NCBI GenBank assembly: GCA_902595425.1
Contig: CACJPV010000002.1
Coordinates: forward strand, 1,559 to 65,558
Length of the DNA: 64,000 bases
Direction: 5' to 3'
Source: an uncultured Alphaproteobacteria bacterium
GTDB taxonomy: Bacteria > Pseudomonadota > Alphaproteobacteria > HIMB59 > GCA-002718135
This document shows, in pieces, positions 45,001-57,000 of the stretch. How positions within the stretch are numbered: position 1 is the stretch's first letter; the number at the start of each line of letters is the position of its first letter. The position numbers were made by a program.

Positions 45001-48000
45001 AAAAAGAATAATTTTTTTTAACTTGTCAATTTGATGTCTATTTATAAAATCTTTTTTATAGGTGTTATTAATAGATTGATTAAAATATTCTGTATCAATG
45101 CCTCTATTGATGACTGATATATTTTTATTAGTAATATTATATTTTTGTGTAACTGTTTCTTTTACATACTCTGATATTGCAATCAGATGATCCATTTTAG
45201 ATAATCCCTTATTGTAAATTTTTTTAAAGAATGAATTGCCACCATACACATTATGAAAAGTACTAATTGTTTTAATTTTATTTTTTAACATTAAATTGAT
45301 CATCCAAGCAGGGCCTCTAGATCGAACATGTACTAAATTAATATTATTTGCTTGAATAAATTTGTTTATTTTACGTGATATTGAAGGATATGAAAAAAAG
45401 TTTTTGCTTGATACAGGTAATTGATGAACATGAACAAAATTGTCATCAAGTTCTTTAATCATTTTGCCACCAGAGGTGATAATAAAATTCTTAATTTGTT
45501 TCTGAGCCAAAAAATTAGCCACATCTACCGTGCCTCTTTCGACACCTCCAGAATCAAGAGAGGGAACTATTTGTACAAGATTAAAGGATGACATTATTAG
45601 TTTATATTGTTATTCTATAATATGCGTTTTTATAAAAACAAACAAAACCATAAAATTGCTTATAAATCGCTAAAAGGTAGAAGATTAGGGATTGTTTTTA
45701 TTCACGGATTGCTCTCTGATATGAACGGTGGCAAAGCGCGTGACGTTGAGCGATATGCTAGGAAAAACAATCTTAATTTTGTTCGTTTTGATTGCCGAGG
45801 GCACGGCAAATCTGAGGGAAAATTTGAGGATTTTACCATGTCTGATTGGAGAAAAGACTTATTAGATATTATCGATAATGTTGCTAAAGGGCCTCAAATT
45901 CTCATCGGTAGCAGTATGGGTGGATGGTTAATGATGTTGGCTGCCAAAGCAAGACCGCAAAGAATAAAAGGTTTAATTGGCCTAGCAGCAGCTCCTGACT
46001 TTGGAAAAGATTTATACAACGCATTAAATAAAAAAAATAAAAAAGAAATTTCTACTAAAGGTATTACTAAATATACCTCAAATGGTTTTAGCTATTACTT
46101 AACGAAAAAATTTTTTATTGAAGCAGAAAAAAATAGAGTTCTTCGAAAACCAATTCGATTTACAAAACCAGTTGTTCTAATGCACGGACTAAAAGATAAT
46201 GTCGTTAAAGAAGATGTGCCTAAGAAAATACTTAAAAAGATAACTGGTAAAAACGTTAACATTATTTATCTCAAAGAAAGTGATCACCGCTTATCCACTG
46301 AAACTGATTTAAAAATGATTACTCAATCAATAGACTATATAAGAAAGACTAAATAAATTATTTAACCCTCCTCTTCTTAGTGCTAGTATAATCATAATGA
46401 TTTGTATTAAAGCTAATATACCTGAAGAGCTTTCTCAAATTGATGATGAATTAAAAGCCATTTATCATAGTAGTGACACTGTGTGTTTTTTTATATTTAA
46501 AACACGAGAACAAAGAAATGATTTTATTGAACGAACCAAAGGAATGAAAAAAATTGAAAGAGAAAAGATTTACGAGGAGTATAATTAATTAATGAGTCTT
46601 AAAAATTTATCCTACTTTATAGATATAAAACATTATCCAATTCATGAACCTAAAAGTTCAAAGTATCAAAAAATTATAAAAGAAGCGCAAACAGCATTAG
46701 AATTTGATGGGTGTTATGTGTTGCCTTCAATCGTCAATAAAACAGCAATAAATGATATGCGTGAAGAGTCTAAAAAGATTGAAAGTTTGGCTCACTATAC
46801 ATCAAATAAAGTAAATGTTTATTTTTCAAAAGATGATCCAGCATATCCAGAAGATCATCCACGACGATTTTTTATGGAACGAAGTAACGGATTTGTATCC
46901 GGAGATAAATTTCCAGAAAATTCTATTATTAAGGAGTTATACTATTCAGAAGAACTTAAAAACTTCATTGCTGATTGCTTAGGAATACCAATATACCATT
47001 ATGCTGATCCTCTTGCATCATTAACAATGAATGTAAATAAACCAGGTGATCGTTTCTCATGGCATTACGATACGAATGAATTTACAGTAACAATGTTGGT
47101 TCAAGATTGTGATGAAGGTGGCGTGTTTCAATACGTACCTAATATTCGCAATAAAGAAGATGAATGTTATGATGAAGTATTAAAATTATTAAAAGGTGAT
47201 ATGTCGCGTGTAAAAGAAATAAAATTAAATGAAGGTGATCTTCAACTTTTCAAAGGTCGTTATGCGTTACACCGTGCAACAAGAGCAGAGGGAAATACGA
47301 CAAGAAATCTTGTTGTTTATACGTATACTGAAAAAGAAAATGTTATAGGCTCAAGTTACCGATCAGAGGAATTGTACGGCAAAACTCTTGATGTTCATAA
47401 AGAGAGAAGAGTTCGAAGTGACTCACTCACTGATTAGTATGAAAAAAATTGGCGTTATTGGATTGGGTAACATGGGTAGCGCTGTTGCTAAAAATATTTT
47501 GCGAGCTAATTTTCCTCTCTCTGTTTTTGATATTAAAAAAGAAGCTAGTGATAAACTTGTTGAAGCTGGTGCTGTTTGGAAAAATTCACCTAAAGAATTA
47601 GTAAATGATGTTGATATTGTTGTCTCCATGGTTTTTGGCCCAAAAGAAATTGAAGCGGTAATGAAAAATGAGGATGGTATACTTCAGGCTAACTGCAATC
47701 ATAAAGGTTGGATTGATCTGACTACAAGTAGTCCTACTCTAATGAGAAATTTAGCAAAGGAATTTGAATCCTTAGGTGGTCTATCTGTTGATGCTCCAGT
47801 TACAGGATCTTTGGATGCTGCTATCAGAGGTGATATGATCATGTTTGTTGGTGGTACAGATAAGGCTGTTGAGAATGTAAAAGAAGTGTTGGAGGTTATA
47901 GGAGAGATAAGACGTGTTGGCGATTATGGTAATGGTTATGTCGCCAAATTAGTAAACAATCAGCTTTGGAAAATAAACGCAGCGGCAATTGGAGAGGCAA

Positions 48001-54000: not shown

Positions 54001-57000
54001 TTCTGCATTTGCCTTAACAGGAGTTGGTGCTGCAATAGCAGGGCTAATGTATTCAAGTCGTGTTGCTTCATCAAACCCAACTCAAGGAAGTGGTTTAATG
54101 TTGGAAGCAATTGCAGCTGTTTTCTTAGGAATGACTATGAGTGAAGAAGGTGAGCCTAGGGTATTATACACTTTATTAGGTGTATTAATCTTAGGTGTTT
54201 TAGACAATGGCCTCACACAAATGAATGTTGATAGTTATATTAGAGAAGTATTGGTTGGGTTTATTGTAATTCTGGCTGTTGCGTTTTCAAGTATTACAAA
54301 AAAAAGAAATTAATTAAAAGATAATGTCATTAAGGAAGATCTTTCAAGTAAATTACTAAAAAAGTAACTGGTAAAAACTTTAATATTATTTATATCTAAG
54401 AAATTAATCACCGATTATCAACTCAAACTAATTTAAAAACGAATACATAATCAATAGACAATTAAAGAAAAACTATTTAAAATTTAGTTAGGCTGTCTTC
54501 GTAGTCTCAACAAGAACTGGTTCTTCAAATTTATTTACCATCTCTTTTGGAATAATCTGCCAGAATAAATATTTATCTCTATCCCAGTTATCCAAAATAT
54601 CTTTTGCGTGCTGTGAATTCGTTTCGTTAAAGTATGTTGTAATTTTATTTTTTAAGACATCTTCCCAGTATGGTGTCATTTGTTGTTGGTAGAAAACATC
54701 ATCAAGATTTATTCTAAGTGGGAGTGTTCCATCTTTATCAAAAACGAAAGACATTCCTCCCGTCATTCCTGCACCAAAGTTATTTCCAACTTCACCTAAT
54801 ATGACAACACTTCCGCCTGTCATATATTCACATCCATTATCGCCGCATCCTTCAATCACAGCATGTGCTCCAGAATTTCTCACAGCAAAACGATCTCCTG
54901 CCATGCCTGCTGCATATAAAGTTCCTTTGGTAGCTCCGTACATAACCGTATTACCAATAATGACATTTTTATTTGTCTGAAGTGAAGATATCTCTGAAGG
55001 TGTGATAATGATTTTGCCACCTGATAATCCTTTAGCTACATAATCATTTGCATCACCTTGTATTTTTAAGGTAGTACCTTTTACAGTAAAGGCACCAAAA
55101 GATTGGCCTGCTGACCCATTAAGATTGATAATCACATGATCATCTTCTAACTTGTTCATTCCTATGTTCGTTGTAATTTCTGATGCTAATCTAGTTCCAA
55201 GTGCACGGTCCGTATTTTTAATATTGTAACTTAGTTGAACTTTTTGTCCTGACTCAAATAGAGGTTTTAAATCTTCAATCATTTTAAGATCTAAACTATC
55301 AGTCACTTTGGTAATATTATCTTTCTTTACCTTATAATCACCAAGGGATGAGTCAATTGTTTGAATAATTGGATTTAGATCTAAGTCATCTAGATCAGCA
55401 CTTCCCCTACTTACCTGATAGAGTAAATCCGCTCTACCAACAATTTCGTCTAATGTTTTAAAACCAAGTTCGGATAAGATTTCGCGAACTTCCTCTGCAA
55501 TATAAGTGAAAAGATTAATTACTTTCTCCGGTGTGCCGGTAAATTTCTCTCGCAGCTTTTCATCTTGCGAGCAAACGCCAACAGGGCAAGTATTAGAATG
55601 ACATTGTCTGACCATAATACAACCCATCGCCACCAAACTTGCTGTACCAATGCCATACTCTTCGGCACCGAGCATTGCTGCAATAACAATATCTTTTCCG
55701 GTTTTAAGACCACCGTCTGTTCGCAGAATAACTTTATCGCGAAGATTATTTAACGATAAAACTTGATGTACTTCACTCAAACCAAGCTCCCAAGGAAGAC
55801 CTGCATACTTAATACTAGTTTGCGGACTAGCACCTGTCCCGCCATTATGACCTGATATCAAAATCGTATCTGCTTTTGCTTTTGCTACACCCGCTGCAAC
55901 TGTACCAATGCCAGACTGTGCAACGAGTTTGACACACACTTTTGCTTTTGGATTTATTTGTTTTAAGTCGTAAATTAATTGAGCAAGATCTTCGATAGAA
56001 TAAATATCATGATGCGGTGGTGGACTAATAAGAGTCACCCCTTTTGTTGAGTGCCTGAGTTTAGCAATAAGTTCAGTTACTTTTCCTCCTGGTAATTGAC
56101 CACCCTCTCCTGGTTTTGCCCCTTGTGCAACTTTAATTTCAATTTCATCACAATTATTTAAATACTCTGCTGTTACACCAAAGCGTCCACTAGCAATTTG
56201 TTTAATTCTTGAAGAAGGATTATCACCATTTGGTTTTAATTTAAAGCGACTTGCATCCTCACCACCTTCACCTGAATCTGATTTCGCACCAATGCGATTC
56301 ATCGCAATTGATAATGTTTCATGAGCTTCTGGACTTAGAGCGCCAAGTGAAATACCAGGAGCTACTAGACGTTTTCGTATTTCTTGTGCTGATTCTACTT
56401 CAGTTAAATTAGTTGAATTATTATTTGTTTTATAACCCAATAAATCACGGATATTAATTGGCGGCATGTCATCAATCATCTGTGAATATTTTTTATATAA
56501 AGAATAATTTTTATTCCCAACTGCTGATTGCAACATATGGATGGACTTTGCCTCAAATGCATGTTGTTCACCACCAAATCGATATCGATAGAAACCACCA
56601 ACAGGAAGTGATGTTACTTGTTCATCAAAAGCTTTCGAATGAGCTTCTAATGAACGCTTTTCAATTCCTACTAATCCTATTCCAGAGATTTTGGAACTCA
56701 TAGATGGAAAGAATTTACTCATGAGAGTACGACTCAAGCCAATAGCTTCAAAATTACAACCACCTCTGTATGAATTAATAACTGAGATTCCCATTTTACT
56801 CATGACTTTGAGTAAACCATTATTAATGGAATTAATGTATCTCTCTACACACTGTTCATAGGATAAAGATCCAAACAGCCCTTTCTTATGTCGCTCCGCA
56901 ATTGCTTGCTGTGCAACATATGCATTAACGCTTGTTGCTCCTACACCAATTAACACTGCAAAATAATGAACATCTAAACATTCAGCTGATTGAACGTTTA

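Follow-up and report, generated by a model that had tools for sequence, protein, structure and literature searches.

A decayed hydrolase tail at the border of a flexible-island hot spot in a SAR11-type genome

SAR11 genomes are tiny and, to our knowledge, nearly free of mobile elements, and the swapping of operons between them is known to us mostly from population statistics and not from individual junctions. Here we analyse a stretch of 64,000 nucleotides from an uncultured Alphaproteobacteria bacterium (contig CACJPV010000002.1, positions 1,559 to 65,558), called the window in what follows and used for all coordinates unless a relative is named. In this window eight co-directional genes, the cassette, lie between an alpha/beta-hydrolase gene (45607-46356, forward strand), which is the left border of the island, and gltB (54488-59092, reverse strand), the gene of the glutamate synthase large subunit, which is the right border. 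The last part of the hydrolase gene recurs at the far end of the cassette as a decayed copy, referred to here as the relic. The locus represents a nucleotide-level footprint of one operon-swapping event, and its two parental junction types, the empty and the filled one, can still be found in nature. We consider it reasonably probable that this arrangement of island and relic was formed by homology-facilitated illegitimate recombination (HFIR).

The closest described systems are the flexible genomic islands of SAR11 (Environ Microbiol 2019, PMC7318151; Microbiome 2025, PMC11796062). SAR11 populations carry dozens of fixed-position islands without mobile elements, in which one or a few genes are exchanged by homologous recombination, and in four of these islands a partial tRNA repeat marks the insertion of a cassette (PMC11796062). 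The present locus resembles them in its fixed site between core genes, its many alternative small gene sets and its lack of canonical mobile elements, as well as in the signs of exchange by homologous recombination, the island genes being more similar here than their flanks. Nevertheless, it differs from the tRNA-repeat islands because its partly repeated border gene encodes a protein and because its repeat is 81% identical and decayed, whereas theirs exceed 90%. The lineage is also a different one from the gMED genomospecies of the SAR11 island study.

HFIR has been shown experimentally in Acinetobacter, Streptococcus pneumoniae and Pseudomonas stutzeri (PMC3240628; PMC5361080) and has been proposed for the displaced or orphaned 3' ends in type VI secretion system (T6SS) and Rhs loci (PMC5361080). 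Our locus would share with it one homologous anchor, one joint at a microhomology of a few bases and an old 3' region that was shifted downstream and orphaned. Unlike the cases studied experimentally, it is read from sequence only, and unlike in T6SS and Rhs loci the displaced piece is not a toxin/immunity module but the tail of a housekeeping-type hydrolase without a function of its own. A similar layout is known from Escherichia coli K-12, where prophage e14 supplies a working replacement tail to icd and leaves the icdC fragment at its far end; this prophage excises by site-specific recombination (PMC13626634). Here too a protein gene with a working tail has the insert within its 3' end, and a C-terminal pseudogene fragment stands at the far end, but no integrase, no phage gene and no recurrent crossover point was found at our locus. 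As an instance of the integrase-free SAR11 hot spots already described, the locus is clear but ordinary, and it is no new kind of system.

The direct repeat and the decay of its distal copy

BLASTN aligned 46190-46364 with 54315-54486 in the same orientation, with 142 identities over 175 positions (81%) and 3 gap positions. The E value was 2e-44 in the pairwise comparison and 4e-42 against the whole 64-kb window, which confirms the direct repeat of about 165 nt that a sequence-only reading of this DNA had claimed. A separate repeat scan recovered the same pair, and no third copy was found by BLASTN in the 64-kb window, the next best match having E = 0.016. Neither flanking inverted repeats nor other direct repeats rose above the AT-rich background of the window in the repeat scan. 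The proximal copy, on the forward strand, is live and comprises the last 55 codons of the hydrolase gene, its stop codon and 8 nt beyond. The distal copy, in the same orientation, is the relic: the decayed 3' end of an empty-site hydrolase, of the allele ending in RKTI*, still joined to gltB. It starts 1 nt past the permease stop (54311-54313) and ends 1 nt short of the gltB stop (54488-54490). Both copies open with the identical 14-mer TAAAAGATAATGTC, a block that had been noticed before, although as a 13-mer.

When its 1-nt deletion is corrected, the relic reads KDNVIKEDLSSKLLKKVTGKNFNIIYI*EINHRLSTQTNLKTNT*SIDN*RKTI* (asterisks are stop codons). The decay and the deletion had thus been recognised properly in the sequence-only reading, but the in-frame stops are three and not two. 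Between the relic and the live copy there are 31 substitutions and 1 deletion in 166 aligned positions. At 14 of these 31 positions the relic state is also present in other live alleles, nine of them being third codon positions, and therefore these 14 states are old polymorphism. The remaining 17 changes are unique to the relic and fall on codon positions 1, 2 and 3 in 11, 4 and 2 cases respectively, with a ratio of 7:1 between changes from GC to AT and from AT to GC. Regarding all the relic differences together, their spread over the three codon positions is 14:6:11, against 20:17:45 for the variable columns among live alleles, and the GC content of the relic is 0.19 against 0.25 in the live copy. 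This pattern is that expected of a dead sequence which decays neutrally with an AT bias, with around 10% of relic-specific change. Such an amount is of the same order as the divergence at four-fold sites of the cassette between the window and its nearest carriers (0.05-0.25), and the relic is not very recent.

We also considered an RNA or terminator role for the relic. Its folding energy was no better than that of shuffles on either strand (z = +1.7 and +0.1) and the scan found no terminator-like site at it, so both roles were rejected. The decay of the relic can serve as a rough clock and samples the neutral mutation spectrum, and its presence shows that non-coding debris is able to survive for a while in a genome under streamlining.

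The earlier state of the site can be approached through relatives. A scan with the hydrolase protein, taking one genome per species, returned 31 loci, and 16 of them had a full-length hydrolase at 79-94% amino acid identity; these are SAR11-type single-cell and metagenome-assembled genomes. An empty site, where the hydrolase gene is directly convergent on gltB, was found in L009, L010, L012, L015, L017 and L020, and look-ups of hydrolase homologues added L114 and L115, giving a total of 8 genomes or contigs. L017 and L020 are more distant, with hydrolase identities of 57% and 63% respectively. Since the empty site is found even in these most distant relatives, it is likely the ancestral state, with 1-30 nt between both stop codons. 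This agrees with the earlier proposal that hydrolase and gltB were once convergent neighbours.

The relic fits into this ancestral arrangement. From 54314 onward the window forms a single uninterrupted high-scoring segment pair with the hydrolase 3' end and gltB of L009, L010 and L012; for example, 54314-63981 aligns with 10583-20241 of L010. Furthermore, the hydrolase of L114 ends in RKTI*, and this contig has AGAAAAACTATTTAAAATTTA immediately ahead of the gltB stop, 22 nt being identical to the tail, stop and spacer of the relic. The collinearity with the empty-site hydrolase tail and gltB, together with this 22-nt junction, supports the reading of the distal copy as a decaying fossil that has kept its original place. 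The empty site of L115 reads IDYIRKTK* and then ATTATTCAAC directly ahead of gltB, which is the tail of the proximal copy; the ...IDYIRKTK* of the window followed by ATTATTTAAC matches L115 except for one base. Because L114 and L115 carry them, both parental tail types persist in nature in the empty configuration. The live hydrolase gene has remained intact and runs collinearly with those of its relatives through the proximal copy, and gltB is collinear likewise.

Variable contents of the hydrolase-gltB gap

Besides the 8 empty sites, we found at least 12 different arrangements between hydrolase and gltB among the relatives. The variable segment is bounded by these two genes in L001-L003, L008, L013, L016 and L112, where the outer synteny is kept. 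Its simplest contents are glmS in L001, orf63 and glmS in L013, a 96-aa open reading frame (ORF) and glmS in L016, and a 146-aa ORF in L003. All eight genes of the window are present in L004 and L005, in L005 followed by a 158-aa gene. The genes from the ureohydrolase to the permease occur in L002 with a 202-aa ORF on the reverse strand, and those from the FGGY kinase to the permease in L008 with the same 202-aa ORF. L011 contains a 533-aa ORF, ABC-transporter genes and other ORFs and then orf63 with the HalD-like and dehydrogenase genes; the latter three genes also occur in L112 and L113, where they follow TctCBA, a two-component system and a binding protein. L006 has two unrelated ORFs of 377 and 237 aa and L018 unrelated ORFs, and both contigs end before gltB; the contig of L032 begins inside the permease, which is followed by DUF1330. 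The earlier idea of a single insertion does not hold for such a hypervariable site. Taken together, these comparisons identify the hydrolase-gltB gap as a multi-allelic flexible-island hot spot in a SAR11-type (Pelagibacterales) lineage.

The eight genes are not one unit either. Module A (46397-48374, forward strand) consists, according to Pfam, of orf63 and the genes for a HalD-like protein and a beta-hydroxyacid dehydrogenase-like protein, and module B (48375-54313, forward strand), according to Pfam and NCBIfam, of a ureohydrolase, an FGGY kinase and a sugar-type ABC transporter. Module A occurs without module B in L011, L112 and L113, and orf63 alone in L013, while module B occurs without module A, whole or in part, in L002 and L008. 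In L112 the orf63-HalD-dehydrogenase genes are directly followed by a 159-aa gene, DUF1330 and gltB; its 159-aa gene is 97% identical to that of L005, and its DUF1330 gene 98% identical to that of L032. What we call module C occupies the place of the relic in L005, L032 and L112. Because L112 joins module A directly to module C, the insert of the window can be read as module A plus module B. Thus, the single eight-gene cassette of the sequence-only reading has to be replaced by at least two modules, each of them occurring separately elsewhere. The FGGY-to-permease operon is also found in a different genomic context, without the ureohydrolase, in contigs of 30% GC including L033-L035 and L069, with a permease around 91% identical, and the order FGGY kinase, binding protein, ATPase and permease is kept in many taxa of higher GC (among L036-L111) at 45-80% amino acid identity.

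A conserved spacer of 40 nt upstream of orf63 (46357-46396, forward strand), with TATAAT at 46387-46392, accompanies module A as well as its deletion derivatives, and is kept in L002, L004, L005, L008, L011, L013, L112 and L113; it may act as a promoter, which we only infer. As a separate observation, the orf63, HalD-like and dehydrogenase genes always move together with the same upstream spacer (L011, L112, L113). In L002 (10794-10853) 18 codons of orf63 remain as a stub, whose joint with the start of the ureohydrolase lies at the microhomology ATGAAT, and in L008 (2816-2827) the ATG of orf63 is fused to that of the FGGY kinase, the 40-nt TATAAT spacer being kept in both. To judge from these junctions, L002 and L008 are deletion derivatives.

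The similarity of the cassette between genomes exceeds that of its surroundings. The window and the other carriers share 95-99% nucleotide identity in the cassette but 68-90% in the flanks, and at four-fold sites the cassette has diverged by 0.05-0.30 and the upstream flanks by 0.47-0.64. Against L002 the identity is 68-76% in the upstream glycosyltransferases, 91-99% in the hydrolase and 95-99% in module B, and L008 is similar. Since the similarity of the cassette exceeds that of the flanks, the cassette appears to spread between lineages by recombination. A max-chi-square scan placed the strongest breakpoint of the pairs window-L002 and window-L003 at 45575-45581, at the 5' end of the hydrolase gene, and in that exchange the whole hydrolase gene moved with the island. 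By eye the similarity to the window also rises near 46190 in L004 and L005, but max-chi-square was not significant there. Position 46190 as the shared boundary of the transferred unit is therefore suggestive only, the strongest breakpoints lying at 45575-45581.

Regarding composition, the mean gene GC of the cassette, 0.327, compares with 0.290 (sd 0.05) for the remaining genes of the window (p = 0.049), and the GC at third codon positions (GC3) was 0.190 and 0.182 respectively (p = 0.35); the adjoining gltB, with 0.359, is above the cassette. The higher GC of the cassette, which had been taken as a cue in the sequence-only reading, is thus weak. A foreign origin by composition was rejected, as the cassette and the remaining window have the same GC3, and the cassette genes are compositionally native.

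Scans of the eight cassette ORFs with Pfam and NCBIfam turned up neither integrase nor transposase domains, no tyrosine or serine recombinase was found in the cassette or in those neighbouring ORFs that were scanned, and the only tRNA of the window is a tRNA-Ser at 33154-33243. These results and the repeat scan bear out the earlier statement that integrase, transposase, tRNA and inverted repeats are absent from the insertion. The insert had no near-identical match in phage or plasmid records, and the viral contigs contained neither a relative of the hydrolase nor an exact match to a 29-mer spanning the conserved KDNV block at the start of the repeat. A phage or plasmid vector was rejected on these grounds. 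With no mobile-element genes and with a cassette more similar than its flanks, recombination is the likely agent, as had been proposed.

Formation of the island and its relic

The joint between cassette and relic (54309-54326, forward strand) is out of register: the permease stop TAA and a T are followed by the hydrolase from nt 584 onward, and TAAAA is present in both parents. Across this joint L005 reads ...GAAATTAATTAAAAAAGG, the hydrolase ...GGACTAAAAGATAATG and the window ...GAAATTAATTAAAAGATAATG. If the shared block is set apart, the window is ...GAAATTAAT-TAAAA-GATAATG, L005 is ...GAAATTAAT-TAAAA-AAGG and the live hydrolase is ...ACGGAC-TAAAA-GATAATG. TTAAAA after the permease stop is common to the window and L005, and the hydrolase has CTAAAAG. 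At random joints in the window a microhomology of at least 5 nt has P = 0.011. The sequence after the permease stop differs among the window, L005, L032 and L002/L008.

Under HFIR, the parents would be an island chromosome of the L005 type (hydrolase-A-B-C-gltB) and an empty-site chromosome of the L114 type, joined in one event. One crossover would be homologous, either in or upstream of the hydrolase gene or in gltB, and the other would be illegitimate and out of register, using TAAAA to link the base that follows the permease stop with nt 584 of the hydrolase. The empty-site hydrolase tail (RKTI*) would stay attached to gltB and then decay neutrally. Homology-facilitated recombination had been named before together with a Campbell-type event; the former fits, whereas the circle of the latter is unneeded, as a filled and an empty chromosome linked by a single illegitimate joint yield the same structure. 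Should this account be right, illegitimate joints would contribute to island turnover alongside ordinary homologous exchange.

Several points weigh against this account. The mechanism is inferred from one junction, and its 5-nt AT-rich microhomology goes only modestly beyond chance (P ~0.01). The relic arrangement is in no other genome or metagenome contig examined, so that the history rests on one sequence: no second hydrolase fragment was found in the L001-L113 loci examined, a low-stringency search for the relic in the L032 spacer returned AT-rich noise only, and the junction 23-mer AGAAATTAATTAAAAGATAAYGT had 0 exact matches in metagenome contigs. Look-ups of the exact permease and ureohydrolase proteins of the window likewise returned no record. 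Moreover, the divergence between L013 and the window is around 17% to the left of 46190 and around 5% to the right, which a random illegitimate joint does not predict. Finally, two directions of the event give the same product and would be equally consistent with the data. Either an island fragment anchored in the hydrolase gene entered an empty-site genome, or module C of an island genome gave way to an empty-site fragment that was anchored in gltB. The divergence at four-fold sites between the window and L005 is 0.16-0.29 in the upstream flank and 0.08-0.25 in module A, and because these values are similar the second direction may fit slightly better. The earlier claim that the incoming DNA supplied a new hydrolase 3' end corresponds to only one of these two directions.

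Homologous direct repeats around an insert are also the formal product of a single crossover with a circle, and a Campbell-type event, in which a circle with the 167 nt of the hydrolase 3' end and the genes recombined with the resident tail, has to be weighed. If the 17 relic-specific changes are excluded, the parent allele of the relic is near the cassette-linked allele, and since only around 8% divergence remains, the homology for such a crossover would have existed. In addition, the window, L002, L004, L005 and L013 all have the spacer and orf63 linked to the cassette-type 3' end. However, all other carriers lack a distal copy, the tract shared by the window and L002 spans the whole hydrolase gene (breakpoint 45575) and not merely its last 167 nt, and neither copy has an evident chimeric pattern, a comparison of low power. 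The Campbell route also adds a step, because the formation of the circle needs the same illegitimate joint between the permease and nt 584 of the hydrolase. We consider it unlikely, though to be taken seriously. We judge it very unlikely that a trans-acting recombinase integrated the genes site-specifically and used the 14-mer TAAAAGATAATGTC as att core, in the manner of e14 and icd. The identical 14-mer does stand exactly at the boundary of both copies, the repeat length and the live/dead layout mirror icd/icdC (PMC13626634) and the L013 comparison has its change point near 46190. Nevertheless, there is no integrase in the cassette or the other ORFs scanned, the records and viral contigs searched gave no phage, plasmid or viral link, and the other variants join past the hydrolase stop or in its last codons, not at 46190, and without a relic. 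The 14-mer encodes the KDNV motif, which is conserved in nearly all live alleles, and therefore its identity is explained by earlier selection. A broader form of this idea, which is very doubtful, makes the hydrolase 3' end from the conserved TAAAAGATAATGT block onward a dedicated attachment site for cassettes without integrase, inserted by a host recombinase. If it were true, cassettes would be passed around in the form of circles or defined fragments, each with a replacement tail for the gene, relics would be the usual by-product, normally erased fast by streamlining, and SAR11 would have an integron-like or tycheposon-like gene-capture system without an integrase of its own.

Two other explanations were weighed. 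A second, paralogous hydrolase beside gltB, or a local duplication, could have decayed independently of the arrival of the genes, and a truncated gene copy would be the expected leftover. But the junction of relic, stop, spacer and gltB equals that of single-copy empty sites, with 22 nt identical to L114, no relative examined has two hydrolase copies, and the relic begins exactly at the end of the permease gene, so that this origin is scarcely plausible. An assembly artefact, either a chimeric join or a collapsed repeat, could be suspected because the arrangement was not seen elsewhere. It is barely credible: 19% of positions differ between the two copies, stops and a frameshift are present in the distal one along with an AT-biased decay for which there is no live template, and the shared joint of 5 nt was presumably too short to mislead an assembler.

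Genes of the locus and neighbouring regions

The hydrolase matches Pfam Hydrolase_4 and Abhydrolase_1. Its ORF begins with TTG at 45607, and its homologues, of 242-250 aa, cover 97-98% of it and begin at the equivalent of ATG 45622, which is probably the real start (244 aa). Among the 120 best protein clusters, 242-250 aa long, there are at least 40 different endings of the last 8 residues. Because these endings are so variable, the border of the island reaches into the last codons of the hydrolase gene. We also observed that the last 3-8 residues (46330-46356 in the window) vary along with the neighbouring gene set. On the other side, the gltB ORF has 1534 aa, with 74-96% amino acid identity in all relatives, and its L112 orthologue has the Glu_synthase and GXGXG domains.

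All the cassette genes are on the forward strand. In module A, orf63 (46397-46588) has no family match, the next gene (46592-47437) encodes a protein matching Pfam HalD (E = 2e-17), and the beta-hydroxyacid dehydrogenase-like protein (47388-48374) was assigned by Pfam. Neither orf63 nor the HalD-like protein had an NCBIfam match, and no NCBIfam model reached its cutoff for any cassette gene. Module B was assigned by Pfam and NCBIfam. It begins with an agmatinase-like ureohydrolase (48375-49340), followed by the FGGY kinase (49342-50799), which is closest to xylulokinase but under the curated cutoff. This kinase probably starts at ATG 49342 and not at the mechanical 49309, the former being the same point that is fused in L008. 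The transporter is composed of a sugar-type substrate-binding protein (50852-51793), an ABC ATPase (51849-53357) and the permease (53354-54313). Between the binding-protein and ATPase genes, at 51804-51833, there is a perfect hairpin of 13 bp followed by a T-run, the only strong terminator-like site of the cassette; a hairpin after the binding-protein gene is in the typical position of attenuation in ABC operons.

Outside the island, the GT9, GT9 and GT4 genes upstream of the hydrolase (42555-45594) fall into two deeply divergent allele groups among the relatives, with 57-77% amino acid identity (mostly 62-74%) against around 84-93%, the hydrolase and gltB being near 90%. There is a sharp breakpoint at 45575-45581, and these genes have the appearance of a replacement-type variable region next to the hot spot.

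Further upstream, the ORFs at 19399-22855 and 33714-35894, which lie among GT2 and Alg9-like glycosyltransferases, have a very low GC (0.14-0.25). Among them are two of 156-157 aa (GC 0.14-0.16) and one of 605 aa, none of these three having a Pfam match, and the block at 33714-35894 adjoins the tRNA-Ser gene (33154-33243). Both blocks together are probably a hypervariable region of cell-envelope glycosylation.

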